The notes: a model not told the origin generated them from the sequence alone. 64,000 nucleotides of DNA from Gammaproteobacteria bacterium (GCA_022819855.1 JAJEGN010000004.1:47128-111127); one strand, 5' to 3'; positions 642-25,453 are shown, counted from the stretch's first letter. Numbers and translations: made by a program.

Positions 642-645
642 GCGA

Positions 646-3756: not shown

Positions 3757-3787
3757 AGCAGCTCCCGGTATTGCGAACGGCGGGCGC

Positions 3788-4852: not shown

Positions 4853-5006
4853 TTCGATTCTTCTTGATATTTCGGGAAGTGTCGAATGGTAAGCCGTTTT
4901 CGCCGGTGGAAGCTAGCCGTTGGCGAAACGCGGCGTCGCCGCCTGTTCCGCAGTCTTCGGCGAGGCGGTCGTGCGCCCCATCCAGCGGGCGTATCGCCGC
5001 AGCTTC

Positions 5007-5708: not shown

Positions 5709-6122
5709 GATTGATCCCCCGATATTTCGTTGCTTGCTTCTTCGCGTACGAGACTACTCCCGCAGAAGGCGTCGGGCAAGCGGCTTCGTTTGGGACCATG
5801 ATCGATGTTTTCGATCACCGGGTCAGCCGCAGGCACATGGTGCGGGGTCCGGCAATCCGCGCGGCGCTGCGCACGTTGCGGGTTCGGCGGTACGCGGCGC
5901 GGACCGGCGCGCAAGCGACGCCCGTGCTGCGCGCGCACCGGAGAACGATCGAACTCATCGTCGAGCGCGCCTGATACCGCGAGGGTGTCCGGGCAGGGAC
6001 CCCGGTTGCCACGGGCAAGGTTCCTTTCGATAATCGGACGAGTCGCGCCGCAAGCGCAGCCGGGCGTCGCCGCAAGCGCTGACGCCCGCTCGTAGCGCCG
6101 TTGAGCCGGGGGTATCAACGCC

Positions 6123-7074: not shown

Positions 7075-8145
7075 ATGCAGCATCATCAAGTGCGGGTCCG
7101 GCGACCGTTGGCGGTGGCCTTGCTTGCGGCGCTCGCCTGCGGACATCTCGCCGCGCAGCAGCCGGACGAGACCGAGGCCGATGCCCGGGCACAGTCAGCG
7201 GCCGAGCCGGCGTGGACCCAGCCGCGCACGCCCTGGGGCGATCCGGACCTGCAGGGCGTGTGGCGCTACGAAGCGACGATCCCGCTGGAGCGGCCCGCAC
7301 GCTATGCAGACCGCGCGTTCCTGACCGATGAAGAGATCGCCGCGATCGCCGAGACCGAAGAGGAACTCGCCGCGGCGCGGCTCGCGGGCCTCGACGGCAC
7401 CGACGTCGGCCGCCAGCCCGTCGCCGACTCGCCGATTCGCGGCAACGAATACAACAGCTTCTGGCAGGACCACGGGCGCGCGCGCCAGGTCTACCGGCAG
7501 ACCTCGCTGATCGTCGATCCGCCCGACGGCAGACTGCCGTATACGGACGACGCGCGCGTCGCGGCTCAGCGCACGGCCGCGCGCTACGGTGTCGGGCCGT
7601 ACGAGTCATATCTGGATCCCGATACCGGCGAGCGCTGCCTGACCGACGGCGTGACCGCGATCATGTGGCAGGGTCCGAACGGCGGCCATAACCGCATCGT
7701 GCAGAGCCCCGGCTACGTGACGATCCTGCACGAGGAGTACCGGGACCGCCGCATCATCCCGCTCGACGGGCGCGCGCCGAGCGAAATCCCGCAGTGGTTC
7801 GGTGACGAGGTGGGCTATTGGGACGGCGACACGCTCGTGGTCGAGACGACGAATTTTCTCGACCGGACCAACTACGAATGGGCGAATCTCTGGATGCGCG
7901 CTTCGGAGAACCTCAGGATCGTCGAGCGTTACACGCGCGTCGGCGACAACGCCATGGAATACACGATCACCGTCGAGGACCCGAAGACCTTCACGCAACC
8001 CTGGACCGCGCTCATACCGATCCTGAGGACGCCGGAAGGCACGCAGATCTACGAATACGCCTGTCACGAGGGCAACTACGCGATGGCCAACCTGCTGCGC
8101 GGCGCCCGCAATCAGGCGGCGAGTGACGAGGAAGACTCCGAATGA
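7075..8145 (+). CDS. Secreted uncharacterised Cys-pair family protein (DUF6152 partner)
   Basis: GGAGG RBS before ATG 7075 (alternative ATG 7039); GDPDLQGVW, ERCLTDG, GYWDGDTLVVETTNF, TVEDP, EYACHEGN. Confidence 0.85.
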   Translation: MQHHQVRVRRPLAVALLAALACGHLAAQQPDETEADARAQSAAEPAWTQPRTPWGDPDLQGVWRYEATIPLERPARYADRAFLTDEEIAAIAETEEELAAARLAGLDGTDVGRQPVADSPIRGNEYNSFWQDHGRARQVYRQTSLIVDPPDGRLPYTDDARVAAQRTAARYGVGPYESYLDPDTGERCLTDGVTAIMWQGPNGGHNRIVQSPGYVTILHEEYRDRRIIPLDGRAPSEIPQWFGDEVGYWDGDTLVVETTNFLDRTNYEWANLWMRASENLRIVERYTRVGDNAMEYTITVEDPKTFTQPWTALIPILRTPEGTQIYEYACHEGNYAMANLLRGARNQAASDEEDSE

Positions 8146-8277
8146 CCCGTATCCCGCCGTTCGCGGTTCCACGAGCCCCTGTTTCGTACCGGCCGTGGAC
8201 GTCAGGCATCCGCTTGTCCGGACGTTTGCGGGCAGCCGTTCCCCCCGTGGCGCCCGTCGCTATCCATGGAGATTCCA

Positions 8278-8682
8278 ATGCGCAATAAGCTTCTGGTTCC
8301 GATCGTTGCGCTCGGGCTGCTTGCCGGCGCCGCCGAGGCGGCCGCGCATCATGCGTTCGCGGCCGAGTTCGATTCCAGCCAGCCGATCGAGCTGCAGGGC
8401 ACGGTCGCGAGGGTCGAGCTCATCAACCCGCATTCCTGGATTCACCTCGACGTGACGCGGCCCGACGGCACCGTCGAACGCTGGATGATCGAGGGCGGAC
8501 CGCCGAACGCGCTCTTCCGGCGCGGCTTCACCCAGGATTCCCTGCCTGTCGGCACCGAGATCGTCGTCGAGGGATTCCGCTCGAGGGACGGGACGCTCAA
8601 GGCGAACGGCCGCGACATCACGCTGCCGGACGGCACTCGGCCGTTCACGGGTTCGTTCAGTACCGTCGGAATCGAACGCTAG
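8278..8682 (+). CDS. DUF6152-type secreted protein
   Basis: Signal peptide ending AAA, then HHAFAAEFD; INPHSW; WMIEGG. Confidence 0.85.
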   Translation: MRNKLLVPIVALGLLAGAAEAAAHHAFAAEFDSSQPIELQGTVARVELINPHSWIHLDVTRPDGTVERWMIEGGPPNALFRRGFTQDSLPVGTEIVVEGFRSRDGTLKANGRDITLPDGTRPFTGSFSTVGIER

Positions 8683-12202: not shown

Positions 12203-13129
12203 ATGAGGACCCCGAAGACCCTGACGATACTCGTGGCGCTGGCGGCGCTGGCGCCGCTGCCGACTGCGGTCGCCCAGCCGCAGGACATCGATAACGCCAC
12301 GGTCTACGCCCTGGCCAACCAGCTCGCCGACGAGCTCGAACTCGTTCGCGAGCGCATGGGCGCGCCCTACGACGACAGTCCCCGCCTGCCCGTATCGGCG
12401 GTTACCCAGAACGAACTGTACTTCCAGGTCCAGTTGCTGCTGCGCAAGACCAACCAGCTCGCCGGGGAGCTCGCGGGCGCCTCGCCCAGGCCGCCGGGAC
12501 TCGTGCCCTCCGGCGACATCCAGCCGGGCGACGTCTACGCGCTGATCGAGGACGCGCTGCAGCAGATCGGGCATGTCGCCGATGCGATCGGCATCGCCGA
12601 GCAGGTCGACATCGTGCCGCGCGGCGCGCCCTTGTCCCCGACGGGCGTGTTTCTCGTCGTCATCGACATCAACCGCCAGCTCAACCAGATGCTTGGCGTA
12701 CCGATCAGCGATGCGGACGTCTTCGACGAAATCTCGACCTCGATCGCCTATGCGGCTTCGCTGCTTTCCATGCAATCGGGCGCCGTGGCGGTTCCGGCGC
12801 CACCGCCGTTCGACGGCTACAGGCGTCCGGCCGATGTCTACCGCCGGCTGACGGAATGCATGGACGTCATGATCCGCGTGGCCGAGCGGGCGGGCCTGGA
12901 GGTGGCCGGTCTCAGCACGCGCCGCAACATCCCCGACGACATCACGCCCGGCCACATCATCGATGTCGCGAGCCTGCTCACCGCGGACCTCGCAGCGCTC
13001 GCCGAGCTCATGAACGCGCCGCTCGTGCGGCCGGAGCTGCCGGCGCCCAAGCACATCTTCGCGACGGAGGTCTATACCCAGACCGGGATCCTGTTGCGGC
13101 AACTGGAGGAGCTCGAGCGGCGCCTGTAG
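12203..13129 (+). CDS. Secreted hypothetical alpha-helical repeat protein
   Basis: Signal peptide; recurring P/D-x-D-V-[YF] helix starts (IQPGDVY, SDADVF, RPADVY, FATEVY). Confidence 0.75.
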   Translation: MRTPKTLTILVALAALAPLPTAVAQPQDIDNATVYALANQLADELELVRERMGAPYDDSPRLPVSAVTQNELYFQVQLLLRKTNQLAGELAGASPRPPGLVPSGDIQPGDVYALIEDALQQIGHVADAIGIAEQVDIVPRGAPLSPTGVFLVVIDINRQLNQMLGVPISDADVFDEISTSIAYAASLLSMQSGAVAVPAPPPFDGYRRPADVYRRLTECMDVMIRVAERAGLEVAGLSTRRNIPDDITPGHIIDVASLLTADLAALAELMNAPLVRPELPAPKHIFATEVYTQTGILLRQLEELERRL

Positions 13130-13165
13130 CGTGCGGGGCCGGCCGGCCGCGTCTACAATGCCCGC

Positions 13166-13519
13166 ATGCAGGACAACGACGCCATGCTCGTCGCGTTCGG
13201 CGAATTCGTTCGCGCGCAGCGAAAGCTCGCCCAGGTCTCCCAGCGGCACCTGGCGAAGGCGGCGGGCGTCTCCGATTCCTATCTGAGCCAGCTCGAGCGC
13301 GGCCACTACCGGCCGTCCGCCCAGGTCGTCAAGGCGCTCGCACAGGCATTCGGCATGAAGCCCGAACAGCTCTACACGATGCTCGGTTTCTTCGATGCGG
13401 ATGATTCGGGCGACGAGGTCTCGGTCGAACAGGCGATCCGGCTCGACGAGCGGCTTGCACCGGAGCAGAAGGACACGCTGATCCGGGTTTATCGCTCCCT
13501 GATCGGCGAAGACCTGTAG
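13166..13519 (+). CDS. XRE-family HTH regulator (resembles mycobacterial Rv0474 type)
   Basis: GEFVRAQR..SQRHLAKAAGVSDSYLSQLERG..RPS, with C-terminal VEQAIRLD..L...QK..LI.VY.S. Confidence 0.88.
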   Translation: MQDNDAMLVAFGEFVRAQRKLAQVSQRHLAKAAGVSDSYLSQLERGHYRPSAQVVKALAQAFGMKPEQLYTMLGFFDADDSGDEVSVEQAIRLDERLAPEQKDTLIRVYRSLIGEDL

Positions 13520-13548
13520 CAGTATTGAATTTCCGTGACGGTTACGAA

Positions 13549-13584
13549 ATTGCGTTGACAGCGCAATCGCCGTTGCGCCATGAT
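13549..13584 (+). promoter_or_regulatory. Putative sigma70 promoter with palindrome over -35, upstream of the acyl-CoA ligase
   Basis: TTGACA (13555-13560), 18 nt spacer, CATGAT (13579-13584); ATTGCG-N7-CGCAAT inverted repeat at 13549-13567. Confidence 0.5.
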
Positions 13585-13748
13585 CGCGCCGCCCCGACAG
13601 CGGCGCCATGACCCGACCATCGAGAATCTGGCCAGACCGGGCGGCTGCGCGGGACCAGGCGTAGTTTCCATCGCCGAACGCAGCGGCGCCTCGGCCGGTC
13701 ACCTCCGGCACGCCACAAGACGTCCTTAACCGAAGCGAGTAGACGCTC

Positions 13749-16493
13749 ATGGACAAGCCTGTTCAACCCTGGCTCGAACTCTACGGGTCCATGCCCGCAA
13801 CGATTGAACCGGCAAGCCGGACGGCGCTCGCGATGTTCCGCGCGACGGCCGCGCGCGACCCCGGCGCGCCGCTCGCCTGGTACTTCGATCAAACGATTTC
13901 GGCAGGCGAGTTCGACGCGATGTCCGATGCGCTCGCCGTCGCACTGCAGGCGGGCCGGGTGGAGCCCGGAGACCGCATTGCGATGTACCTGCAGAACGTC
14001 CCGCAGGTGCTGATCGCCGTGCTCGCCGCGTGGAAGTGCGGCGCCGTCATCGTGCCCTGCAACCCCATGCTGCGCGAAGCGGAACTTGCCAAGGTGCTCG
14101 CCGGGTCCGGCAGCCGCGTGCTGATCTGTCAGGAGGACCTCTACGCCGACGTCGCCCAGGCGGCGTTGCCGCAGACGGCGGTCGAACTTGCGGTGACGAC
14201 CTCGGCGCTCGATTTCCTGCCGGACGATCAGCCCCTGCCGAAGATGCTCGCCGGCATCACGCGGCAGCGCAGCGTGAAGGCGCCCGACATGCTCCAACTC
14301 ATCGACCGGCATCGCGGCGAAGCGCCCGAACCGGTCGCGATCAGCGGCGAGGACGTCGCATTCATGGTCTATACCTCGGGGACCACGGGCGATCCCAAGG
14401 GCGCGATGAACCTGCACCGCAACGTCGTCTTTGCGACGACGGTGTACGAGCGCTGGATCGGCCTGTCCGTCGAAGACCGGATTCTCGGTCTGGCGCCGCT
14501 CTTCCACGTGACGGGGCTGATCGGTCACGTCACGCTCGCGATGCTGACCGGCGCGCCGCTCATACTCTTCTACCGTTTCGATGCCGACGAGGCGATGCGC
14601 CTGGCGGCGAGCCACGGGGCGACCTTCTGCGTATCGGCCATTACGGCGTTCATCGCGCTTCTCAACAGCGGCGCGCTCGACAAGTACGACGTGAGCTCAT
14701 TGACCAAGCTCTATACGGGCGGCGCGCCGACGCCGCCGAGCGTTCTCGCCGAGTGGCGCGAACGCACCGGCGTCAGGATCCACCCGATGTACGGCCTGAC
14801 CGAGGCGACCTCGCCGACGCACATGACGCCGCACGACGCCGAGCCGCCCGTCGATTCGCATACGGGAGCCCTGACGATCGGCGTGCCCGTGTTCGACACG
14901 AAGGTCAAGGTGATCACGGATGCCGGCTACGAGGCCGAGCCCGGCGAAATCGGCGAGTTCGTGATCGCAGGTCCCCAGATCGTGCCGGGCTACTGGCAGA
15001 AACCCGGGGAAACCGAGCGCGCCATCGGGCCGGACGGCCTGCGCACGGGCGATGTCGGCTTCATGGACGAGAAGGGCTGGTTCTACCTCGTCGACCGGTC
15101 CAAGGACATGATCGTCGCGTCAGGCTTCAAGGTCTGGCCGAAGGAAGTCGAGGACGTTCTGTATGAGCACTCGGCCGTGCGCGAGGCGGCCGTCGTCGGC
15201 ATCCCCGACCCTTACCGCGGCGAGACCATCAAGGCGGTGATCAGCGTGAAGCCCGGACGCGAGGTCGGCGTCGACGAGATACGGGCTTTCGCTCGCGAAC
15301 GCCTCGCGGCCTACAAATACCCGCGATTCGTCGAGATTCTCGACGAGCTGCCGAAGACGACGAGCGGCAAGATCATGCGGCGGCTGCTGCAGCCGACGTC
15401 CACCGGCGCGGCATTGCCGATGGAGGCCGCGGAGTCCGAGTTCGCCACGGTGTCCTATCCGCAGTTGCGTGCGGCGGTGGAAGCGCGCGCGGTGCTCGAG
15501 GCCGGCGCGACCTGGCTGCGCCTGAGTCGCGGGTCGGTGTCGATGTCGACTGCCGAAACGCTCTACGAGCGGCTGCACGCGATGGTCGCGCTGCTCGGCG
15601 AGGACGGGACGTTCATCGACAAGGAAGCGTTCTTCGATGCCAACAAGGCCTATCACGCGGCCGTGATCGGGATCGCCGAGAACGAGCATCTCTCCGCCGG
15701 CTTCGAAACGCTCAAGCTCCGGCAGCTTTACCGTACGGCGCTCGAGGAAGAGTCCGTTGCCGCGGAGAACGTCATCTACTTTCACGAGTACCTGACCGAT
15801 TCGATCGCGGCCGGTAACGCTGAAGGCGCCATTCAGGCGATCCTGTCCTGGGGCAAGACCTCGGCCTCTCGCGTGCGCAAGGCGCTTCGATACGACGGCG
15901 GAGATACCTCGGTCGTCGACGAGCTGCGCCCCGGCGGTATCGTCGAGGATCTCTCGGCGGCGTTCGCAAAGGAACAGGACAGCCTGGCCGGGGACGTGGA
16001 CGCGCTCGTGCAGGGCCTCGATGCCCGCGCGGCGCTCGAGATCGGCATTACGGAATCGCTCGGCAAGGCGCTCATGGTCGAGGCCGAGCGCGATGCGCTG
16101 CGTGCGCGCCTGCGCGCCTTCACGCCGCTCGTCCGCGGCGCGACCCGCGCGCACGTCGCCCGTTACATCCGTTCCGACGACGCGTTCCACCGCGTGTTCC
16201 TGAGCCTGTTGCGCAATCCCTGCCTCTTCGAGATCTACAACTCCATCGACCTGCCGGAGCTCATGCGCCGCGTGCTCGAGGTCGCGCCGGCTTCGATTCG
16301 GGAAGTCTTCGACGACCACAAGGGGCTCACGCGCGCTTTGCAGAGCGGCGAGACCCACAACGTGAGCGCGGCCATCACCGAACACGTGAACCGGGCCCGC
16401 ACGGCGCTCGCGGAGTTTCTCGCCGAGTCCGAAGGCGGCGACGAACGGCAGGAGTTTGCGGGAACCGACGCGACGGCGCTGCGCCGCGCCTAG
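13749..16493 (+). CDS. Long-chain acyl-CoA ligase (AMP-binding) fused to two FCD (GntR C-terminal) domains
   Basis: YTSGTTGDPKG, YGLTEAT, LRTGDVG, DRSKDMI, LPKTTSGKIMRR; then two EAR..LE...[ND]..[YF]H...N..L...H units. Confidence 0.88.
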   Translation: MDKPVQPWLELYGSMPATIEPASRTALAMFRATAARDPGAPLAWYFDQTISAGEFDAMSDALAVALQAGRVEPGDRIAMYLQNVPQVLIAVLAAWKCGAVIVPCNPMLREAELAKVLAGSGSRVLICQEDLYADVAQAALPQTAVELAVTTSALDFLPDDQPLPKMLAGITRQRSVKAPDMLQLIDRHRGEAPEPVAISGEDVAFMVYTSGTTGDPKGAMNLHRNVVFATTVYERWIGLSVEDRILGLAPLFHVTGLIGHVTLAMLTGAPLILFYRFDADEAMRLAASHGATFCVSAITAFIALLNSGALDKYDVSSLTKLYTGGAPTPPSVLAEWRERTGVRIHPMYGLTEATSPTHMTPHDAEPPVDSHTGALTIGVPVFDTKVKVITDAGYEAEPGEIGEFVIAGPQIVPGYWQKPGETERAIGPDGLRTGDVGFMDEKGWFYLVDRSKDMIVASGFKVWPKEVEDVLYEHSAVREAAVVGIPDPYRGETIKAVISVKPGREVGVDEIRAFARERLAAYKYPRFVEILDELPKTTSGKIMRRLLQPTSTGAALPMEAAESEFATVSYPQLRAAVEARAVLEAGATWLRLSRGSVSMSTAETLYERLHAMVALLGEDGTFIDKEAFFDANKAYHAAVIGIAENEHLSAGFETLKLRQLYRTALEEESVAAENVIYFHEYLTDSIAAGNAEGAIQAILSWGKTSASRVRKALRYDGGDTSVVDELRPGGIVEDLSAAFAKEQDSLAGDVDALVQGLDARAALEIGITESLGKALMVEAERDALRARLRAFTPLVRGATRAHVARYIRSDDAFHRVFLSLLRNPCLFEIYNSIDLPELMRRVLEVAPASIREVFDDHKGLTRALQSGETHNVSAAITEHVNRARTALAEFLAESEGGDERQEFAGTDATALRRA

Positions 16494-16624
16494 CGCACGT
16501 TCGCTCGCAGGCGAGCCGGGCGTCTGCCGTCCTGGCTCGCGAATCGGACCGCGGCCACGACCGCGCAAGCAATTGCGAGACGCCGCAGCGAGACGGGTCT
16601 CGAAAAAAAAGTTGACGGGGACGC

Positions 16625-16659
16625 TTGACATGCAGAGCGAATGCGTAGCAAACTACGCA
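16625..16659 (+). promoter_or_regulatory. Putative promoter and operator upstream of the phasin-like gene
   Basis: TTGACA at 16625-16630; perfect inverted repeat TGCGTAG-CAAA-CTACGCA at 16642-16659. Confidence 0.5.
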
Positions 16660-16739
16660 CGCTTTCGGTTGGGGTGGAAGACCGCCTCGCCAAAGACGAC
16701 TGATCCCTTGCACTTCGTTTGTTTTGAGGAGTAACGACG

Positions 16740-17057
16740 ATGTCAGAATATGCCAAGCTTGCCACCGCGGCCGGCGACCAGTATCTGTCCGCGCTCGCGG
16801 ACGCGCAGGAGACCTTTCTGAAGTCCATTGAGCCGGTCATCGAGACGATGGGCAAGGTCCCTGCGATGCCCGCTCCGGCGTTCGCGATCGACGTCCCGAC
16901 GCCGCAGGAGATCTCCGAGGCGAATTTCGCCTTCGCGAACAAGTGGCTCAAGCAGCAGAAGAAGTTCGCCGACCGGCTGTTCGCGACGCCCGCTCCGACG
17001 TCGACCTCGAGCACGACCTCGAGCACGACGAAGGCGAAGCCGAAGACCCAGTCCTGA
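16740..17057 (+). CDS. Phasin-like / granule-associated small protein
   Basis: GAGGAG RBS; amphipathic helices, PTPQEISEANFAFANKWLKQQKKFA, T/S/K-rich tail; lies just upstream of phaC. Confidence 0.6.
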   Translation: MSEYAKLATAAGDQYLSALADAQETFLKSIEPVIETMGKVPAMPAPAFAIDVPTPQEISEANFAFANKWLKQQKKFADRLFATPAPTSTSSTTSSTTKAKPKTQS

Positions 17058-17081
17058 TCGATTGTTGCAGCTCCCTCTTTC

Positions 17082-17112
17082 GCGGCGCGCTCCGGCGCGC
17101 CGCAGTTTTTTT
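17082..17112 (+). terminator. Rho-independent terminator
   Basis: GCGGCGCGC-TCCG-GCGCGCCGC hairpin followed by AG and T7. Confidence 0.8.
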
Positions 17113-17220
17113 CACCGGACGTCTTTGTCACGGGCTGCCAGATCCACCGCGCTGACGTAAACTGACCGCCGGGCTGCCGTGCGCGGCTCCACGAGCGCGC
17201 AGATCCGAAGGAGCGACAGC

Positions 17221-17622
17221 TTGGCCGAAGAAACCTCCAACCAGGAACCCACGCTCGTCGAGCAATGGCTCGAGGAGCAGCGCGAGTGGCAGAAGACCAC
17301 GCTCGCCTATCTTGATTCGATCGTCAGGGACGAAGAGTTCCTGACCCACCTCGGCAACGCCATGCGCGGTTCGCTGCTCGCCGGCAAGCCGTACCCCACG
17401 CCCGTTCCACCGGCCGCATCGGCGCCCGAGTCGGATTTCGCGGATCGGCTCGACCAGCTTCTGTTCGCCGTGCGCGAACTTCAGGGTCAGGTGGCCGACC
17501 TGCGCATGACGCTCGACGAGATTCGCGCCGGCCAGGACAAGGCCGCTACGGGTGCGGATCCGGCTGCCGGCGCTGCCGACGAGGGCGGCGGGTCGAACGC
17601 CGCGCGGCAGGCAGACCGTTGA
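17221..17622 (+). CDS. Small PhaE/PhaR-like PHA synthase accessory subunit (putative)
   Basis: AAGGAG RBS with TTG start; WLEEQREW..LDSIVRDEEF...LG, then coiled coil RLDQLLFAVRELQGQVADL; stop overlaps phaC start (TTGA). Confidence 0.6.
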   Translation: MAEETSNQEPTLVEQWLEEQREWQKTTLAYLDSIVRDEEFLTHLGNAMRGSLLAGKPYPTPVPPAASAPESDFADRLDQLLFAVRELQGQVADLRMTLDEIRAGQDKAATGADPAAGAADEGGGSNAARQADR

Positions 17623-18716
17623 CCTTCGCAGTCGACGAGCGCGAACTCGAATCGCTGATCGAGGTCTCCAGGCGCAGCCGCGCCAAACTCGAGCGTCTGC
17701 ACGAAGTCCTGACGACTCCCGGCCACTACGGCGCGGGCGCCACTCCGGCGCAAGTCGTCTACTCGGAAAACAAGCTGAGACTCCTGAGACTCGTCGATGA
17801 CGGAGGGCAGCCGCGCAACGGTCCCCCGGTCCTCTTCATCCCGGCGCCCGTCAGCCGTTACTTCATTCTCGATCTCATGCCGGACCGATCGTTTGCAGGC
17901 TACGTCGCCGCGGCCGGTTTCGACGTCTACATCGCCGACTTCGGCGTACCGACGCGCGAGGACCGCTTCTGCGATCTCGCCTACTATGTCGACGGCCTGA
18001 TTCGCCGCTCCGTGCGCACGATCTGCCGGACGAGCGGAGTCGACGAAGTCGGCATCGTCGGCTATTGCCTGGGCGGCACGCTGGCCCTGCTGTACTCGGC
18101 GCTCCATCCGGAAACGGTGGCGCGGCTTGCGCTGCTCACGACGACGGTCGACGGAGACGTGGAGGGTGGCATCGCCTGGGTCGCGCATCGCATGGGGCTT
18201 GAGGGCGAGAGTTACGAGCAGCCCCGGCTCGTGCCGGCCATTGAGGTCAAGAGCTGGTTCGAGATGCTGTCGCCGGGCTCCAACAGCGTGCTCGGACGCG
18301 TGTCGGACCTCTGGGACCGGCTTGACGATCCGCCGGAGCGGCTGCGCGACGTGCGCACGATGGCATCGTGGGTCGACGACGTCGTGCCCGCGCCCGGCCG
18401 ATTGCTTGCCGAGATGTACAGCCAGTTCGGACCCGGCCGCAACGGGCTCATGAAAGGCGAGGCCGCGGTCGGGAACCGCCCGGTCGACATCGGGAACGTG
18501 ACGATGCCCGTGCTGTCGGTGTCCGCGGCGCGCGACACGATATCGCCGCCCGAAGGCGTTGACGCGATCGGTTCAATCGTGCCCCAGGCGGAAATCGTCC
18601 GGCTGCGCGGCGGGCACGTCGGTATCGTCGCGGGACGCGCCGCAGCCGGGCTCTGGCCGCGGGTCGTCGAGTTTCTGGGCAACGGCAAGGACAGCGGGGA
18701 TCGCGCCGATGGCTAG
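17619..18716 (+). CDS. phaC: Class III/IV-type PHA synthase PhaC
   Basis: 365 aa; TPAQVVY, YFILDLMPDRSF, GFDVYIADFG, lipase box GYCLGG (Cys), ARDTI (Asp), GGHVG (His). Confidence 0.8.
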   Translation: MTFAVDERELESLIEVSRRSRAKLERLHEVLTTPGHYGAGATPAQVVYSENKLRLLRLVDDGGQPRNGPPVLFIPAPVSRYFILDLMPDRSFAGYVAAAGFDVYIADFGVPTREDRFCDLAYYVDGLIRRSVRTICRTSGVDEVGIVGYCLGGTLALLYSALHPETVARLALLTTTVDGDVEGGIAWVAHRMGLEGESYEQPRLVPAIEVKSWFEMLSPGSNSVLGRVSDLWDRLDDPPERLRDVRTMASWVDDVVPAPGRLLAEMYSQFGPGRNGLMKGEAAVGNRPVDIGNVTMPVLSVSAARDTISPPEGVDAIGSIVPQAEIVRLRGGHVGIVAGRAAAGLWPRVVEFLGNGKDSGDRADG

Positions 18717-19539
18717 CCGCTACATGAACTGGTGCGGCCACCGCATCCACATCACGGAGGCCGGGGTCGGAGATCCGCTGCTCCTGATCGCGGGCCTCGG
18801 CTGCAATACGGAGATGTGGGGTCCTTTCCTGAGCTACCTGCCGGAACGGCGCGTCATCCGTTTCGATGCGCCCGGCACGGGGCTGTCGAGCACGCCGGCC
18901 TACCCGGTGTCGGTCGCCGAACTCGCGAGCCTCACTGCCGCGGTGCTCGACGACTGCGAAGTCTCCCGCGGCGATGTGATCGGCTACTCCTACGGCGGCG
19001 GCGTCGCACAACAGGTGGCCCTCGACTATCCGGAGCGGATCGGGCGGCTCGTGCTTGCGGCCACGACCTGCGGAGTCGGCATGGTGCTCGGTTCGCCGCG
19101 GGCGATGGTCGTGCTCTCGACGCCGTTTCGGTACTACTCGTCGCATTACTTCAACCGCACGGCGGCCGTGGCCTACGGTGGGCGGACGGCGCGCAACCCG
19201 GATATCCGCCGCCGGATGATGCTGGCGCGGCGCGCGCACCCGCCGACCTATCACGGCTATGCCATGCAGTTGCTCGCGGGCATGGGCTGGTCGAGCCTCG
19301 GGTTTCTCGGCCGTATTCCGCACGAGACTCTCGTGATCTGCGGGGACGACGATCCGCTGATCCCGATCGTGAATCCGGAATTGCTCGCGAGTCGGATTCC
19401 GCGCGCAGAACTCGACATCGTGCCCGGCGCCGGTCACCTGTTCCTCTGGGACGACGCCGAAAACATGGGTGGACGCATCGGGCAGTTCATCGAACGCGGG
19501 CGCAGGCGCATCGACAACGTGATCGGGCTCGGTGCCTGA
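18709..19539 (+). CDS. phaZ: Poly(3-hydroxyalkanoate) depolymerase, intracellular mcl-PhaZ type
   Basis: FDAPGTGLSSTP, GYSYGG, YPERIGRLVLAAT, GYAMQLLAGMGWSS, GDDDPLIP, GHLF, matching the Pseudomonas PhaZ pattern as recalled. Confidence 0.78.
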   Translation: MASRYMNWCGHRIHITEAGVGDPLLLIAGLGCNTEMWGPFLSYLPERRVIRFDAPGTGLSSTPAYPVSVAELASLTAAVLDDCEVSRGDVIGYSYGGGVAQQVALDYPERIGRLVLAATTCGVGMVLGSPRAMVVLSTPFRYYSSHYFNRTAAVAYGGRTARNPDIRRRMMLARRAHPPTYHGYAMQLLAGMGWSSLGFLGRIPHETLVICGDDDPLIPIVNPELLASRIPRAELDIVPGAGHLFLWDDAENMGGRIGQFIERGRRRIDNVIGLGA

Positions 19540-19575
19540 CGACAGATTGACCGCTATCAGACTGGAGACGAACGA

Positions 19576-20541
19576 ATGAGCAGTTCGACCGGGACCTTGA
19601 GGGGCGCCATGGAGCTGGCGTTGCTGTTTGCGATCGGCGCCGGTGCCGCGCATGCACAGGAATGCGCGCCTTCGCAGTTCGGCGCGGATGACGAAATCGG
19701 CGCGGCGAACCTTGTTACGGCCGAGAGCGTTCTGGCCGCGATGAGTCTCGTCGAGGCGGGGCAGGTCCATCCGCTCGGCATCGTGATCGATCCGGGCATG
19801 CCGGCATTCGCGCCGCGCCGGATGATGCTGCAGGTCGTGCAGCCGGGACAGCATCATGGCCGGCCGCTCGACGGTGATTTCGGCTGGCCGATGAGCTACA
19901 ACGACGATGTCAGCCAGCTCTGGTGGGGCATGGGGCCGCAGATCGACGGGCTCGGCCACCTCGGCGAGGCCGGCGTCTTCTACAACTGCACGCCGGGGAG
20001 CGATTTCTCGGCCATCACGGGGCTTGAGAAATTCGGCATCGAGAAGATCCCGCCGCTCGTCGCGCGCGGCGTGCTCATCGACATGGCCCGGCACTTCGGT
20101 GTTGACGCGCTCGAAGGCGGGCAGGCCTTCGGCGTCGAGGACATCCAGGCAGCGGCGCAAGCGCAGGGCGTGGAGATCCTGAGCGGCGACGTCGTGCTGT
20201 TTCACACGGGCTGGACCGACGCGTACCTGACCGCGGATCCGGCCGCATGGGTCGCCACCGAACCCGGCATCACGAACGCCGCCGCCGTGTATCTCGCTTC
20301 GCTCGGTCCGCTCGCGGTCGGCGCCGATACCTGGGGCATCGAGGCCGTGCCTCCCGCTGACGGAGACAGGGTCTTCTACGGCCATGTGACGCTGCTCAAG
20401 GAGAACGGCATCTACATCCTCGAGACGATGAACACCGGACGCCTGGCCGAGGAGGGCGTCAGCGAGTTCCTGTTCGTGCTCGGTCAGCCCCGGCTGCAGG
20501 GCGCCGTGCAGATGCTCGTCAATCCCGTCGCGATCTGGTAG
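19576..20541 (+). CDS. Secreted cyclase-family (metal-dependent hydrolase) protein
   Basis: FGADDEIGAAN, GPQIDGLGH, RGVLID, GDVVLFHTGW, GADTWGIE, ENGIYILE; signal peptide. Confidence 0.87.
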   Translation: MSSSTGTLRGAMELALLFAIGAGAAHAQECAPSQFGADDEIGAANLVTAESVLAAMSLVEAGQVHPLGIVIDPGMPAFAPRRMMLQVVQPGQHHGRPLDGDFGWPMSYNDDVSQLWWGMGPQIDGLGHLGEAGVFYNCTPGSDFSAITGLEKFGIEKIPPLVARGVLIDMARHFGVDALEGGQAFGVEDIQAAAQAQGVEILSGDVVLFHTGWTDAYLTADPAAWVATEPGITNAAAVYLASLGPLAVGADTWGIEAVPPADGDRVFYGHVTLLKENGIYILETMNTGRLAEEGVSEFLFVLGQPRLQGAVQMLVNPVAIW

Positions 20542-20700
20542 CCGCGGGTCCGGCCGACCGCCGGGCGTCGCCCGAATTCCTCCTGCCGACGACCGCCGGT
20601 CGCGCCTGGCGGCCCCGGCGATTGTCGACGGCCGAATCCCCTGCTACGGTTGGGAGATACCATTGCCGTCCCGGGCGATGGCCAGCGGGGGAGATCGGAT

Positions 20701-22806
20701 ATGTCGAAGAAGCATAACGATGAACGCGGGGATTCCGGGCGACGCAACGAGAGCGGCGTAAGCCGGCGGGAATTCGTCAAGGGCGGCGCCGCAGCCGGCA
20801 TCGGCGCCGCGGCCTTGCTTGAGTCCGGCACGGCGCCGGCGCAGCAGGCGTCGACCGGGGCCGACGCGATTCAATGGGACTACGAAGCCGATGTGGTCAT
20901 CGCCGGCGGCGGTTGCGCCGGCCTGACCGCGGCGATCCGGGCGCGTGATCTCGGCGCGAGCGTGCTCGTCATCGACCAGAACTTCGATCTCGGCGGCCGG
21001 ATGCTGCACAGCGGCTCGTTCATCTCGCTCGGCGGCGGCGATCCGATCCAGCAGCGCGACATGAAGGGCGAGAGCGATGCCGAGGGTTTCGTGACCGTTC
21101 CGCCGCTTGAGAATCCCGAGGAACTCGACGACGACATCGAACTGCTCTTCACCGACATCACCGACTGGTCGGTCCTCGACATCAAGGCCCAGAACCCCTA
21201 CCGCTACAACGAGCGCGAGCTCGTCAGGGCCTGGGCCGAGAACTGCCCGGCGACGCGGCAGTTCCTCATGGACAACTACGTGCGTTTCAGCCGGATCAAC
21301 GGCACGCACGGCGGCGGCGGCCTGTCGCGGGCGCGCGGCGCACGCTGCATCTTCGTGCTCGGCGACAAGACCGACATGAAGGCCGGCACGATCACGGCCG
21401 AAGACGCAGGCCTCGCGGATCCCGAGCGCACGAGCGCGTTCGCGCCCGTCCAGATGTACAGCGCAAGCCCCTTCGCCGGGCCGAACACGGTCGCGAACGG
21501 CGTCGCGCTGTCGCGGCCGCTCGAGTTCTCCGCGCGCGAGAAGGGCGTCGAGTTCATGCTGCACCGCTGTTTCGAAGAACTCATCCGCGAGGAGCCCTTC
21601 GCAGGAAGGATACTTGGCATCCGGGCGACCTATTCGCCGCGAATGCACCCGGAAACCGGCGAGCGGCTCGAGAGCTACTGGCAGAACGGCAACATCGACG
21701 AACGGCGCGAGGTCCTGCACATCCGGGCGCGCCGCGCCGTGATCCTGGCCTCGGGCGGACACGCCGGCAACCCGGAGGTCCGCGGCATGTTCTATCCGGC
21801 GATGCGCGAACCCGCCTTCCCGACGAGCGGCATGGCGCTGCAGGGGCCGCACGGCCAGGACGCGAGCGCGCTCACGGCGGGGCTCAGGGTCGGCGCGAAT
21901 CTCGCCGGCATGCAGCAGAACATTTCCTATTCCACGACGTTTCACATCGCCACGCGGCTCGGCACGCGCGACGCGTACACGGCCATGATGCCCGGCCACC
22001 CGACCTTCGGTTACCGCGGTTCTTCGGGCCTTGACGTCGGCACGGCCGGCTTCGAGCAATTCATTGCCGTGAACCAGGTCGGCAAGCGCTTCTTCAACGA
22101 GGTCAGGCTGCCGGTGCGGCCGGGGCTCAACCGCTATCCGGGCGACGGCGGCGCACCGGGCCGCGGACTCGACCACAAGCCGCTCGACTGGCGCAACTGC
22201 CGCAAGGAGTGGGTCAGACAGATGTACGGCTACGACCACGGCCTCGATGCGGCGCTCGCGATGAACGAGGGATCCGAACCCCCGCATTACTACTCGGGAC
22301 CGCTCTGGGCGATCTTCGACCAGGCCGCGGTCGAGCGAAACGAGTGGAGACTGCGCTATCCCTACGTGGCGGACAACGGCTATTTCTTCAGCGCCGACAC
22401 GATCGGGGAACTCGCCGCGAAGATCGAAGCCGGACACGAGTTCCAGCGCGTGCCGCTCAAGTACCTCTCCGAGACCGTGGCGACCTGGAACGGCTATGTC
22501 GACGCCGGTGTCGATCCCGAGTTCGAGCGCGAGACCGAGGCGCCGATGCACGCCATCGCGACGCCGCCGTTCCATGCGCTTGCGATCATGGTGATCTGGC
22601 ACGATTCCTACGGCGGCCTGCGCGTCAACGGCCGCCAGCAGGTCGTCGACATGCAGGGGGAGGTGATTCCCGGTCTCTACGCGGGCGGCGAGGCGGCCGG
22701 CGGCTTCAACAAGCACGGGCTGGGCAAGGGCCACGTGCATGGCTACATCGCCGGCACGCATGCGGCGGCGGATACGGATGTCGAGGAGCCTGCGCGCAAC
22801 GCGTAG
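20701..22806 (+). CDS. Tat-exported FAD-dependent oxidoreductase (flavocytochrome c / succinate dehydrogenase flavoprotein superfamily)
   Basis: SRREFVK; WDYEADVVIAGGGCAGL, VILASGG, VNQVGKRFFNE, GGLRVN, PGLYAGGE. Confidence 0.87.
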   Translation: MSKKHNDERGDSGRRNESGVSRREFVKGGAAAGIGAAALLESGTAPAQQASTGADAIQWDYEADVVIAGGGCAGLTAAIRARDLGASVLVIDQNFDLGGRMLHSGSFISLGGGDPIQQRDMKGESDAEGFVTVPPLENPEELDDDIELLFTDITDWSVLDIKAQNPYRYNERELVRAWAENCPATRQFLMDNYVRFSRINGTHGGGGLSRARGARCIFVLGDKTDMKAGTITAEDAGLADPERTSAFAPVQMYSASPFAGPNTVANGVALSRPLEFSAREKGVEFMLHRCFEELIREEPFAGRILGIRATYSPRMHPETGERLESYWQNGNIDERREVLHIRARRAVILASGGHAGNPEVRGMFYPAMREPAFPTSGMALQGPHGQDASALTAGLRVGANLAGMQQNISYSTTFHIATRLGTRDAYTAMMPGHPTFGYRGSSGLDVGTAGFEQFIAVNQVGKRFFNEVRLPVRPGLNRYPGDGGAPGRGLDHKPLDWRNCRKEWVRQMYGYDHGLDAALAMNEGSEPPHYYSGPLWAIFDQAAVERNEWRLRYPYVADNGYFFSADTIGELAAKIEAGHEFQRVPLKYLSETVATWNGYVDAGVDPEFERETEAPMHAIATPPFHALAIMVIWHDSYGGLRVNGRQQVVDMQGEVIPGLYAGGEAAGGFNKHGLGKGHVHGYIAGTHAAADTDVEEPARNA

Positions 22807-22996
22807 TGTTCGCCGTGCGCTCCGGATTGACAGACAATTTCGGATCGTTACGATACGGGGACGCAGCCCGGTTCCGCGGGAGCCGGGCGCAGTCCGGTTG
22901 AAACGCGGCTTCTGCCGCAGCCGTTCGCGGCGGACGTCCGGCGGCGCACCTGACTGCAGCGCGACCGTTACTGACGCGTCACCGAGGGGGTGGAGC

Positions 22997-25453
22997 ATGA
23001 CTGGTCTTGTAAGGAGATCTTTGCTGGGTCTGGCGGCGGTGGCCGCATTCTCGACCGGCGCGCTTGCCCAGCAGGCGGGACTGCTCGAAGAGGTCGTCGT
23101 CACGGCCGAACGCCGGGAACTCTCACTTCAGGAAACGCCGATTTCCGTCGTCGCCTTCACGACCGAGAGCATCGAGTTCAAGGGCATCGAGACGATCGAG
23201 GATATTTCGACGTTCACGCCGAATCTCGACATCAAGGGCTCGCGTTTCTCCGGCAACAACAACCCCGTGTGGCAGATCCGCGGCCTGTCGGGCTACGGCG
23301 GCACGACGTCCGAACGCACGGCGGGGCTCTACATCGACGGCATCTACGTGCCGCGTACGACGGGTCCGTTCCTGAACGTGCTCGACGTCGAGCGCATCGA
23401 GATCCTGCGCGGTCCGCAGGGGACGCTGTTCGGGCGCAACAGCACCGGCGGCGCGATCCGCATCTTTACCCAGCGGCCGGGACCGGAACGCGACGGCTAC
23501 GTCAGGGTCGGTGTCGGCAACTTCGACCGGCGCGATCTGACTGCGATGTTCAACGTTCCGGTCAGCGACGCCTTCTACCTGCGCGGCCAGTTCGCCTCGC
23601 TGAACCAGGACGGTTACGTCAGGCGCGGCCCGCAGCTCCTCGGCGGCTCCGAAGACACGATCGGCCGGCTGCAGGCCCGGTTCGTCCCGAGCGAAAACGT
23701 CACGGTCGACATCAACTTCAGCGTCACCGAGGTCGATTCCGACGGCGGCGCGCAGGACCTCGCGATCTGGGACATGCGGCCACACCAGGACTACGAGGGC
23801 AACTACGCCGACTGGCTCTCGGACTTTCTCCAGAACGCGGGGCAGCCGCGTCTTGAGGTCTACAACGATCCCCGCGTCGTGCTCGACGACTACACGATGC
23901 CCGACTGGTGTTTCATCGACGACGGCGACCCCGACTGGGACCCGGCCTGCGAGCAGTGGAACACGCTCGACTTCCAGCAACTCGACGCGACCGTCGAGTG
24001 GCAGATCAACGATACGCTGACGCTGACCTCGACCACCGGCATCTCGAGCTTCGAGAGCGCCGCGGTCAACGACGCGCAACTGCTCGGCTTCTCCTGGACG
24101 CCGAGCGAGGTCAACTCCGACGTGTTCTACCAGGAGCTGCAGCTCAACGTCGGCCTCGAACGCGTCAACCTCGTGGCCGGGTTCACGTACTTCGAGGAGG
24201 AAGGCCGGTCGGACGCGCAGGCGGCGCTGTCGGTCGTCGGCACGAGCAACTACTTCATCCAGCGGTCCTTCGGCAACGCCTGGTCAGGACTGCGTTCGCA
24301 GAACAACGTGCTGACCGAACCCGACGCCGAGGCCATCGGCCTGTTCCTCAACGCGACCGTTGACGTGACCGACAACTTCAGCATCACCCCGGGCCTGCGC
24401 TGGTCCCTCGACGAAAAGGACGTGACGCAGACCGAGTTCGCGTCCGACAATTTCGTGCCGTTCGAGGGCGGCAGCACGAGGATCAACGCGAAAGAGGACT
24501 GGGACGAGGTCGACTGGCGGCTCACGCTCGACTACGACATCGCCGACAGCCACATGGTCTACGTCACGGCGTCGAAGGCGTTCCGCGCAGGCGCCTATTC
24601 GCTGCCAAGCGGCATGGGGGCGCCGGGCATCTCGGAGAACTTCTCCGGCGAACAGATCACCGCAGACCTCGCGCGTTCGCCGCCGTTCATACCGCCGGAG
24701 AGCGTCGAGAACCACGAGATCGGCCTTCGCACGGAATGGCTCGACGGCCGCGTCCGGTTCAACGTGACGTATTTCGACATGTTCTACTCCGACCGCCAGG
24801 GCCCGGTGGCGATCCCCGACCCGACGACGAACACGGGCTTCATCATCCAGACGGTCGATACCGGGGATGTCGACATCTGGGGTGTCGAACTCGATGCGCA
24901 GTTCGGCATCACGGACAATTTCGCGCTCGACATGGCCGCCGGCAACGTCGATTACAAGCTGCACGACATCTGCGGCAACAACGGCGACTTCCTGTTCCCG
25001 GGGCCGGTCGAGGAGAGCTACTCGTTCGGCGGCCGTTTCAACGTGCCGATGCAGACGGGCAGCAACCTGGCGATCTCGCTGAACTATGCGTACGTCGGCG
25101 ATCAGGAGACGCATCCCGGCGGGACGCAGATGCGCTGCCCGAGCCCGGCGGCGCAGTGGTTCTTCGACTCCCGCTATACCAACGAGGCCTACGGGCTCTG
25201 GAACGGCCGCGTCAGGTACACGAGCAGCGACGGGCGCTGGACGGGAACGCTGTTCGTCAACAACCTGACCGACGAGGTCTATTCGAACAACGCGAGCCGC
25301 GCGGGCGGCGGCTGGTGGGATTTCGTCGTTCCGGGCGTCGCCGGCGGGCTCGGCGTTCCCGAGCGTTCGGTCGTCCAGCACGTGCGCGGGCGGCCGCGCG
25401 AGTACGGCGTGACGTTCCAGTACAACTTCGGCGACGGCGCGCGCGCGCCGTAA
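22997..25453 (+). CDS. TonB-dependent receptor
   Basis: LEEVVVTAERR TonB box, RIEILRGPQGTLFGRN, NNLTDE, PREYGVTFQYNF. Confidence 0.93.
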   Translation: MTGLVRRSLLGLAAVAAFSTGALAQQAGLLEEVVVTAERRELSLQETPISVVAFTTESIEFKGIETIEDISTFTPNLDIKGSRFSGNNNPVWQIRGLSGYGGTTSERTAGLYIDGIYVPRTTGPFLNVLDVERIEILRGPQGTLFGRNSTGGAIRIFTQRPGPERDGYVRVGVGNFDRRDLTAMFNVPVSDAFYLRGQFASLNQDGYVRRGPQLLGGSEDTIGRLQARFVPSENVTVDINFSVTEVDSDGGAQDLAIWDMRPHQDYEGNYADWLSDFLQNAGQPRLEVYNDPRVVLDDYTMPDWCFIDDGDPDWDPACEQWNTLDFQQLDATVEWQINDTLTLTSTTGISSFESAAVNDAQLLGFSWTPSEVNSDVFYQELQLNVGLERVNLVAGFTYFEEEGRSDAQAALSVVGTSNYFIQRSFGNAWSGLRSQNNVLTEPDAEAIGLFLNATVDVTDNFSITPGLRWSLDEKDVTQTEFASDNFVPFEGGSTRINAKEDWDEVDWRLTLDYDIADSHMVYVTASKAFRAGAYSLPSGMGAPGISENFSGEQITADLARSPPFIPPESVENHEIGLRTEWLDGRVRFNVTYFDMFYSDRQGPVAIPDPTTNTGFIIQTVDTGDVDIWGVELDAQFGITDNFALDMAAGNVDYKLHDICGNNGDFLFPGPVEESYSFGGRFNVPMQTGSNLAISLNYAYVGDQETHPGGTQMRCPSPAAQWFFDSRYTNEAYGLWNGRVRYTSSDGRWTGTLFVNNLTDEVYSNNASRAGGGWWDFVVPGVAGGLGVPERSVVQHVRGRPREYGVTFQYNFGDGARAP

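Follow-up and report, generated by a model that had tools for sequence, protein, structure and literature searches.

A conserved six-gene cassette built around a distinct short-form PhaC, proposed as a self-contained polyester cycle module of uncultured bacteria

Class III operons for the synthesis of polyhydroxyalkanoates (PHAs), which encode the synthase PhaC together with PhaE, are among the described counterparts of a six-gene cluster that we report here from a 64,000-nt stretch of DNA of a Gammaproteobacteria bacterium (GCA_022819855.1, JAJEGN010000004.1:47128-111127), hereafter the window. The cluster codes for an XRE-family regulator, an acyl-CoA ligase fused to two FCD domains, a phasin-like small protein, an accessory protein of 133 amino acids, a short PhaC and a PhaZ-like hydrolase. 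As in the window, the PhaC of class III operons is short (about 40 kDa) and carries a GxCxGG box. The order phasin, subunit, synthase is also that of the phaP-phaE-phaC genes of Haloferax mediterranei pHME322, where, as in the window, the small gene just upstream of phaC overlaps it by 4 nt and is itself preceded by a phasin gene. However, genes for a MaoC protein and a ketoacyl reductase lie near the Haloferax genes, with neither a ligase nor a PhaZ gene, and the window is the reverse with respect to these last two. The window synthase further departs from class III in sharing 31 to 36% identity with haloarchaeal PhaCs, in falling into a separate clade and in having a partner without likeness to PhaE.

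Clusters with class II-like synthases resemble the window in other respects. In Caballeronia grimmiae p1 (ligase-MaoC-class II-like PhaC-phaZ-acyl-CoA dehydrogenase), in Pukyongiella p3 (MaoC-PhaC-phaZ) and in soil clones, a PhaZ of the TIGR02240 type is encoded directly after phaC and a CoA ligase is found in the cluster, as in the window (a fatty acid-CoA ligase was seen in one of the two phaZ neighbourhoods inspected), the window ligase being 28% identical to that of Caballeronia. Unlike that of the window, the Caballeronia and Pukyongiella synthases are long single-subunit proteins of 544 to 559 amino acids that score 642 to 721 bits on the class II model, and class II-like phaJ-phaC-phaZ clusters include a PhaJ gene and have no small partner, FCD fusion or XRE gene. 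Soil clones with phaJ-phaC-phaZ made medium-chain or mixed polymers, according to the accessible text of the study that describes them; that text also covers short PhaCs termed 'unclassified' and one distant pair of PhaC and PhaE, and the cassette of the window is not in it (bioRxiv 10.1101/042705). The PHA cycle of Pseudomonas putida, as set out in the accessible part of one account, consists of a polymerase, a depolymerase and the ATP-dependent re-activation of free monomers by an acyl-CoA synthetase, the pha cluster being phaC1ZC2D plus phaIF with class II synthases (PMC8764540). The same three activities, carried in P. putida by PhaC1/C2, PhaZ and FadD1, are those proposed for the window cassette, which has all three putative cycle genes in one place and a ligase with two FCD domains. 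We take the synthetase gene of P. putida to lie outside its pha cluster.

As to regulation, PhaR of Cupriavidus necator is a repressor of phasin genes that acts at phaP promoters. The XRE protein of the window may be likened to it as a small DNA-binding protein encoded with pha genes and with an operator over the phasin promoter, although its helix-turn-helix (HTH) is of the XRE type and not of the PhaR (PHB_acc) or AbrB fold, an AbrB-type gene being found beside phaP in Haloferax. In genome mining, the accessible text of one survey lumps short PhaCs as class III and leaves sequences of 'unknown class' unclassified (PMC8312272). A literature search, with most subscription journals and supplements outside its coverage, found no description of the cassette, of the partner protein, of a ligase-FCD fusion in a pha context or of the operator, nor of such an arrangement with plain poly-3-hydroxybutyrate (PHB) as its product. 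In outline this is a PHA system; what is new in it is that the synthase belongs to a lineage of its own, that the partner matches no known family, and that a putative sensor-ligase and a putative regulator-operator pair are integral to it.

All six genes lie on the + strand between positions 13166 and 19539, numbered here and below from the first letter of the window (G+C about 66%), in a genome of 3.73 Mb that is 97.7% complete. The first-pass annotation had described this cluster from the sequence, and the description is confirmed: the six co-oriented genes are all there, every detail that could be checked was accurate, and the last three genes overlap, the accessory gene and phaC by 4 nt (TTGA, 17619-17622) and phaC and the PhaZ gene by 8 nt (ATGGCTAG, 18709-18716). 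Neither a thiolase nor a reductase gene was found in the cluster by a Pfam scan of its proteins, in agreement with the reported absence of phaA and phaB. The overall interpretation given with that description is partly supported. We propose, with a probability of roughly 0.6, that the cassette is a portable and self-contained unit serving an intracellular polyester (PHA) cycle. This reading is supported by the co-occurrence of candidates for all three enzymes that the accessible account of the P. putida PHA cycle names, a synthase, a depolymerase and an acyl-CoA synthetase (PMC8764540), and by the conservation of the six genes as a unit while their flanks differ. It also draws on the identity and separate position of PhaC, on the predicted binding of its partner, on the conserved operator and on the genome itself, in which profile searches found no class I synthase, no PhaB over the cut-off and no PhaR, PhaE or Phasin_2.

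Clear PhaC relatives were obtained at 29 loci from a scan of one genome per species, one weak match of 28% being set aside, and these loci (379,719 bases combined) were searched by tblastn with the window proteins. All six genes occur in the order of the window in 19 of the 29 loci and in a rearranged order (partner, PhaC, ligase, PhaZ, phasin-like, XRE) in two more, both from Micrococcales. Seven loci are cut by contig ends or have an undetected part, the order agreeing for the genes that they hold, and in the last one, from Thermoanaerobaculia, tblastn detected PhaC and PhaZ only. With the full set present in 21 of the 29 related loci, as the synteny search proposed in the first-pass annotation was able to establish, the grouping goes far beyond chance. 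The flanking genes differ in the five distant loci scanned. Conserved flanking genes for monomer supply were considered and rejected, because Pfam searches of 25 flanking open reading frames (ORFs) of these five loci revealed nothing shared; there was no thiolase or hydratase among them, and reductase ORFs of the short-chain dehydrogenase/reductase (SDR) type occur in the flanks of two (L008 and L026). In L026 (Micrococcales bacterium 31B, not titled as a metagenome-assembled genome, so that a culture may exist), one of the two rearranged loci, a 95-amino-acid ORF without a Pfam match lies between phaC and the ligase gene (8101-8385).

The cassette is common to uncultured bacteria of three phyla, its carriers being uncultured Gammaproteobacteria (including Candidatus Rariloculus, Rariloculaceae), Acidobacteriota, one Rhodospirillales record and Micrococcales. 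PhaC was found in 11 of 81 related genomes, counting that of the window. It occurs in three of the four other genomes of the genus, in ten of the 48 other genomes of the family and in none of the 32 genomes from other families of the order. The window stretch is present in sponge-metagenome runs, and 461 relatives were recovered at an E-value of 0.001 or better among the candidates scored; in the best 120 listed, all but the first few are 74 to 80% identical. The PhaC rows of Acidobacteriota nest among gammaproteobacterial rows in the tree, with 72 to 78% identity across phyla, which points to horizontal spread of the whole cassette.

The phaC gene (17619-18716, + strand, TTG start) encodes a protein of 365 amino acids with a GYCLGG box. 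A Cys nucleophile in a GxCxGG box, together with an invariant Asp and an invariant His, is the signature of PHA synthases, and Cys150, Asp306 and His333 of the window protein are invariant in all 21 aligned orthologues. A profile of these orthologues finds PHA synthases as its best solved relatives (9knj at 2.2e-22, then 5hz2, 5xav and 5t6o), and the best-scoring NCBIfam family is the class III model TIGR01836, at 192.5 bits against a cut-off of 365.3. These observations support the identification as a putative synthase. A clustering with non-polymerising hydrolases, which the first-pass annotation had named as a possible refutation, was not seen, the nearest families all being PHA synthases. 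The scores on the class I and class II models are much lower, 74.8 bits on TIGR01838 (cut-off 622.65) and 46.7 bits on TIGR01839 (cut-off 855.4), and the protein is shorter than the single-subunit enzymes of about 560 to 600 amino acids that pass them. Its nearest named relatives are the haloarchaeal class III PhaCs mentioned above. Of 401 genomes of the phylum, 58 had a class III PhaC over the cut-off (405 to 602 bits) and seven further matches scored about 299 to 323 bits, the window PhaC coming next at 192.1 bits. When 1.84 billion cluster representatives were searched with a profile, 5268 matched at an E-value of 0.001 or better, 311 of them at 1e-30 or better. The PhaC family itself accounts for two full-length clusters at 50% identity (670 and 453 bits) and some fragments; beyond it, no full-length protein exceeds 249 bits. 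Of the 150 representatives listed, 60, chosen as the longer and mostly full-length rows, were scanned against NCBIfam; all 60 match TIGR01836, which is the top-scoring family for each except P0215 (higher on class I), those outside the family scoring 220 to 495 bits and the two of the family 200 and 218.

The phylogeny suggested in the first-pass annotation was then run on 63 rows, with an IQ-TREE quick search under LG+C20 and support from the Shimodaira-Hasegawa-like approximate likelihood ratio test (SH-aLRT) only, without bootstraps. The rows comprised 14 members of the family, 8 class III synthases over the cut-off, 30 other unnamed representatives, the PhaC of Haloferax mediterranei, two from Rhizobium, two paralogues described below and, as outgroup, six class I/II-like sequences (one class II-like row of 725 bits and five class I-like rows), no class II reference over the cut-off being found in 301 sampled genomes of the class. 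The 14 family rows come together in one clade (SH-aLRT 100), whose stem has a length of 1.13 changes per column. The 42 other short-form rows fall into a group (support 81) that excludes this clade and contains, besides the Rhizobium, Haloferax and bona fide class III sequences, unnamed representatives that may include class IV; the window PhaC is accordingly placed apart from the class III clade. A single row with a long branch, P0152, takes up a floating position at the base of the tree. By this placement, PhaC is a separate short-form family of predicted synthases, and since it forms its own clade and scores below the class III cut-off, the cluster appears to fall outside the four textbook pha operon classes, as had been claimed.

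No second PhaC-like gene and no class I synthase were found in the window's genome. At two other gammaproteobacterial loci, a second short PhaC, 28% identical, follows directly after the cassette (L014, 9075-10348; L016, 4013-5279) and is itself followed by a second phasin-like gene (38 to 46% identical); in the tree, the branch of this paralogue is long (2.03) and arises within the class III-type radiation. Another representative, P0130 (700 amino acids), has two PhaC-like halves, the N-terminal one class I-like (259 bits) and the C-terminal one of class III type (424 bits).

The gene upstream of phaC (17221-17622, + strand) encodes the accessory protein. Its longest ORF starts at a GTG (17179, 147 amino acids), but the TTG at 17221 is the likely start because a GAAGGAG stands 7 nt upstream and because it matches the starts of the orthologues; with this start, the length of 133 amino acids given in the first-pass annotation is borne out. 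In 17 orthologues, the motif FLxxLGNAMRGSLLAGxxYP shows next to no variation and is followed by a short coiled-coil segment. Many of the orthologues end in a Lys/Arg-rich tail, the window copy having an Ala/Gly/Asp-rich tail instead; such basic tails call to mind the histone-like ones of PhaF, PhaM and other proteins that segregate granules. Pfam yielded no match to the 17 members up to an E-value of 10, and the genome held no match to PhaE (TIGR01834) at an E-value up to 0.1. Nor did hhalign demonstrate homology with PhaE, with probabilities of 0.6% against the PhaE of Haloferax, 0.3% against that of Rhizobium and 19% against a 19-row PhaE alignment, the latter reflecting the coiled coil only. 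The protein encoded with PhaC is no PhaE subunit detectable with PF09712 or TIGR01834.

A model of the complex between this protein and PhaC, built with alignments for both chains, gave an interface score (ipSAE) of 0.77 (0.79, 0.77 and 0.77 in the separate runs), the best of three controls reaching 0.00. At least 57% of contacts are shared between runs, and the predicted local distance difference test (pLDDT) of the partner is at least 64. In the calibration, 116 of 157 solved complexes attained the ipSAE mark, as did 2 of 215 mismatched pairs; for the present model, built on our own alignments, these counts are valid only roughly. No PhaC-PhaE complex is known to have been solved, so that the score is unlikely to stem from a structure memorised by the predictor. 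The predicted interface involves residues 54-76 of the partner, which hold the invariant motif, and 92-114, in the coiled coil, facing residues 7-32, 113-137 and 206-255 of PhaC. On account of this model and of the 4-nt overlap with phaC, the 133-amino-acid protein is the best candidate for a second subunit of the synthase, and as such would represent a new family of subunits. At two loci, partner and PhaC are read in a single frame (L019, 6605-8062, 486 amino acids; L027, 6571-8022, 484 amino acids); these were not counted as fusions, as the neighbouring genes show frame breaks, and both a true fusion and an indel error are possible.

The last gene of the cassette (18709-19539, + strand, ATG at 18709) encodes an alpha/beta hydrolase of 276 amino acids with a GxSxG box (GYSYG), the proposed intracellular depolymerase. 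Standing directly after phaC, it is closest to TIGR02240, on which it scores 203.1 bits, below the equivalog cut-off of 250.6; the next family follows at 120.6, 82 bits lower. The plasmid genes annotated as phaZ, to which it is 37 to 40% identical (40% to the PhaZ of Caballeronia grimmiae), score 259 to 326 bits. Both of those that we inspected follow a long class II-like synthase (721 and 642 bits on TIGR01839) and have a MaoC gene nearby, which upholds the earlier statement that this type of PhaZ accompanies class II synthases. The cluster is hence, judging by these affinities, a real mosaic, in which a short-form synthase is combined with the depolymerase type of long-form, medium-chain systems.

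The ligase gene (13749-16493, + strand) encodes 914 amino acids, with an AMP-binding domain at residues 30-416 (273.7 bits), AMP-binding_C at 466-541 (79.8 bits) and two FCD domains at about 577-698 and at 757-881; each FCD half passes the Pfam cut-off of 24.3 (PF07729) by itself, with 36.7 bits for residues 560-745 and 44.8 for 746-914, and Pfam finds no GntR DNA-binding domain in the protein. The stretches TSGTTGxPKG, YGLTE, TGD and a C-terminal SGK, which we take to be the adenylation core motifs, are invariant in all 16 orthologues (76% mean column identity), so that the protein has the two domains and the intact motifs of an ANL acyl-CoA ligase. Every one of the 120 relatives listed for its C-terminal part, most of them about 900 amino acids long, has FCD and AMP-binding_C domains, and only a single one lacks AMP-binding. 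The counts over the loci, these relatives and the invariant motifs bear out the ligase-FCD-FCD fusion as an integral and equally conserved member of the cassette. In L012, two ligase-FCD-FCD genes stand in tandem (267-6100), 70 to 71% identical to that of the window. An AlphaFold2 model of residues 560-914 (pLDDT 85.6; predicted template modelling score, pTM, 0.86) consists of two helical bundles with a disordered linker between them, and the high pTM suggests that the bundles pack against each other. The best Foldseek matches are the effector domains of the GntR/FCD regulators VanR, DhdR, PdhR and DgoR (probability 1.00, template modelling score up to 0.83 on target length, E-value 4e-3 or weaker), in agreement with the FCD assignment. 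To judge from the titles of these entries, such domains bind small carboxylates, including a hydroxy acid, DhdR being a 2-hydroxyglutarate sensor. The best solved relatives of the ligase part are generic (fatty-acyl/feruloyl-CoA synthetase, FadD-1, MenE and 4CL), and its best NCBIfam models are long-chain fatty-acid ligases, all under their cut-offs.

Between the ligase gene and the accessory gene lies the phasin-like gene (16740-17057, + strand, 105 amino acids, GAGGAG before the ATG). Its label stands by context and shape, with no Pfam or NCBIfam homology behind it: there was no match at an E-value up to 0.01, including Phasin_2 (PF09361) and the other phasin models, and hhalign rejected a relationship with the PhaP of Haloferax (0.8%), the PhaE alignment likewise giving nothing. 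An atlas look-up leads to a Phasin_2 cluster at only 0.83. The AlphaFold2 model, of low confidence (pLDDT 59.1), has helices at residues 3-39 and 55-82 and a disordered tail. Each helix is amphipathic: the maximum hydrophobic moment is 0.49 for the first and 0.53 for the second, where the 95th percentile of shuffled sequences is 0.42 and 0.52, respectively. In L009, an extra phasin-like fragment is found upstream of the ligase (24-224).

The promoter of this gene, also on the + strand, has a -35-like hexamer TTGACA (16625-16630), followed after 11 nt by the 18-bp palindrome TGCGTAGCAAACTACGCA (16642-16659, no strand assigned), of the form TGCGTAG-N4-CTACGCA, which spans the -10 region as a putative operator and holds the likely -10 hexamer in its centre (CAAACT in the window, CATACT in most loci). 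An intrinsic terminator of nine G-C pairs, a loop of 4 and a T run lies 3' of the gene (17082-17113, + strand); it is the sole terminator-like site in 13000-19800, where shuffled sequences gave 3.6 on average, the scan being weak by itself, so that the call depends on position, the hairpin standing directly after the stop codon. With its own promoter and operator, and with the hairpin and T run that follow it, the phasin-like gene would form its own transcription unit. The palindrome matches once in the window, against 0 expected from 100 shuffles, and once in the 3.73-Mb genome (0 for a reversed control), where it is still the sole match at up to one mismatch; the presence of the operator at other cassette promoters was therefore rejected. 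Across the 29 loci, there are 29 exact matches in 24 loci, all within the spacer between the ligase and phasin-like genes, five loci having a second copy about 40 nt upstream, and TTGAC-N11-12-operator is found at the same place in these 24 loci, from two phyla. The five loci without an exact palindrome are two that lack the region, the Thermoanaerobaculia locus with PhaC and PhaZ only, and the two from Micrococcales, of which L026 has a copy with one mismatch 71 nt upstream of the phasin-like gene and L024 rearranged half-sites.

The XRE gene (13166-13519, + strand) encodes 117 amino acids with an XRE-family HTH domain (HTH_31, 53.8 bits; HTH_3, 53.5 bits), in which GVSDSYLSQ(L/I)ERG is nearly invariant among 16 orthologues (74% mean column identity). 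No other DNA-binding protein accompanies the palindrome, and we infer that the XRE protein binds there and represses the phasin-like gene, which would parallel PhaR at phaP promoters. The new regulatory scheme claimed in the first-pass annotation is backed by this conserved operator, unique in the genome. Before the ligase gene, the sole sigma-70-like promoter match (TTGACA-18-CATGAT, 13555-13584) overlaps an operator half-site TGCGTTG (13552-13558, in the region 13548-13584), about 100 nt upstream of a GCGTAGTTT stretch (13659-13667); these may represent a degenerate second XRE site, or chance.

Downstream of the PhaZ gene, the window has a gene of the 'putative cyclase' family (PF04199, 76.5 bits, 19576-20541) whose product starts with a signal-like hydrophobic stretch. 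Relatives of this gene, 35 to 93% identical, follow the cassette in 8 of the 29 loci (L002-L004, L009, L011, L012, L027 and L029), making it the commonest neighbour. Next come an FAD-binding flavoprotein, which scores 105.6 bits on FAD_binding_2 and, weakly and below cut-off, 17.8 bits for a TAT signal, and a TonB-dependent receptor (20650-25453), both conserved in the closest relatives L002-L004 only and probably a separate uptake/oxidation unit.

Taken together as a polyester cycle module, the six genes could work as follows. The short-form PhaC and the 133-amino-acid protein would form a two-subunit synthase polymerising (R)-hydroxyacyl-CoA, the small protein being a functional stand-in for PhaE or PhaR and a recognisable relative of neither. 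The PhaZ-like hydrolase would free hydroxy acids from the polymer, and the ligase would convert free hydroxy acids, recycled or taken up, to CoA thioesters, with the twin FCD domains acting as a built-in sensor of small carboxylates that tunes this step. The 105-amino-acid helical protein would coat the granule, and the XRE protein, sitting on the palindrome across the -10 region, would repress its gene. In such a scheme we infer the polymerase activity, the polymer type, the substrate of the ligase, the granule binding and the XRE-operator binding. The ligase could re-activate monomers released by PhaZ, by analogy with the P. putida cycle, or it could feed beta-oxidation towards two MaoC-type genes elsewhere in the genome. 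For the first source of monomers there are three candidates: direct activation of free hydroxy acids by the ligase, as suggested in the first-pass annotation, beta-oxidation with one of the two MaoC-type proteins, and a FabG-like reductase.

Several points weigh against this proposal. PhaC scores at about half the curated class III cut-off, and annotation rules cannot transfer an activity at that level; the branch that places its family outside all other short forms has a support of only 81, in a quick-search tree without bootstraps and with no named class IV (Bacillus) sequence. PhaZ is below its family cut-off, with lactonases as the next-best families, so that another ester substrate is possible, and the generic relatives of the ligase say nothing on hydroxy acids as its substrate. 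The phasin-like protein lacks homology support and its model is of low confidence. The atlas leads for the small proteins are all sub-threshold (0.82 to 0.85, to PHA-related clusters); that of the 133-amino-acid protein, a lead only, is to a cluster with 26% of members carrying PHA_synth_III_E, at 0.85. The complex model, being a matter of model confidence, supports binding without proving it.

Part of this evidence would also suit a fatty-acid route, in which a FadD-type ligase, beta-oxidation and an R-specific enoyl-CoA hydratase encoded elsewhere supply medium-chain (R)-3-hydroxyacyl-CoA, the cassette being a short-form counterpart of the ligase-phaJ-phaC-phaZ clusters. Two small MaoC-type ORFs elsewhere in the genome (open frames of 169 and 159 amino acids, 88.2 and 80.6 bits) could provide such a hydratase, the Caballeronia grimmiae and Pukyongiella clusters pair MaoC with a class II-like PhaC and phaZ, the phaJ-phaC-phaZ soil clones gave medium-chain or mixed polymers in the accessible text (bioRxiv 10.1101/042705), and the best NCBIfam models of the ligase are for long-chain fatty acids, albeit under cut-off. 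Yet no MaoC gene adjoins the cassette in the window or in the five distant loci with scanned flanks, the ligase is only 28% identical to that of Caballeronia, and the FCD-FCD fusion is left unexplained, so that we consider this route unlikely. An ordinary PHB system, in which a housekeeping thiolase and a FabG-like reductase lead from acetyl-CoA to poly-3-hydroxybutyrate in a diverged class III/IV operon and the ligase merely recycles 3-hydroxybutyrate, seems to us quite unlikely. The haloarchaeal class III PhaCs as nearest named relatives and the phasin-subunit-synthase order shared with Haloferax mediterranei would agree with it, and eight SDR genes of the genome match the PhaB model; the best of these, however, reaches 265.4 bits against 302.1, leaving no PhaB over the cut-off, neither PhaE nor, in profile searches of the genome, PhaR is detectable, the PhaZ is of the type found beside class II-like synthases, and the PhaC clade is separate.

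Far more improbable is a function other than storage, with a PhaC-like acyltransferase and a PhaZ-like esterase engaged in the catabolism or remodelling of esters or oligomers and the ligase activating the released acid. Both enzymes do fall below their family cut-offs, the next-best matches of PhaZ are 3-oxoadipate enol-lactonases, and the FCD domains of solved regulators sense catabolic carboxylates according to their entry titles. Nevertheless, the Cys in the GxCxGG box with the invariant Asp and His is the textbook signature of PHA synthases, the nearest families are all PHA synthases, and a small, strongly promoted helical protein together with a partner predicted to be tightly bound fits a granule system. 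The polyester cycle module could, more tentatively, be taken further, as a fifth kind of PHA synthase system, a suggestion that is possible rather than probable. It would be a salvage pathway in which the synthase has an unrelated 13-kDa partner and is fed by a dedicated ligase whose FCD domains sense free hydroxy acids, scavenged hydroxy acids, for example from the decaying polyester of other organisms or from a sponge host, being stored without thiolase, reductase or hydratase by a six-gene cassette that crosses phyla with its XRE-operator switch.

The four-class scheme of PHA synthases guides genome annotation and bioplastic engineering. The cassette described here is common in metagenomes and couples a deep-branching putative synthase to a partner of no known family and to a ligase that possibly enables a two-step polymerisation of hydroxy acids. 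If the ligase-synthase pair works as read here, it would be a minimal, ready-made route from fed hydroxy acids to polyester, and the 18-bp operator with the XRE protein would constitute a new portable switch for granule genes. For the organisms themselves, it would explain how uncultured soil and sponge bacteria may store carbon without phaA and phaB.

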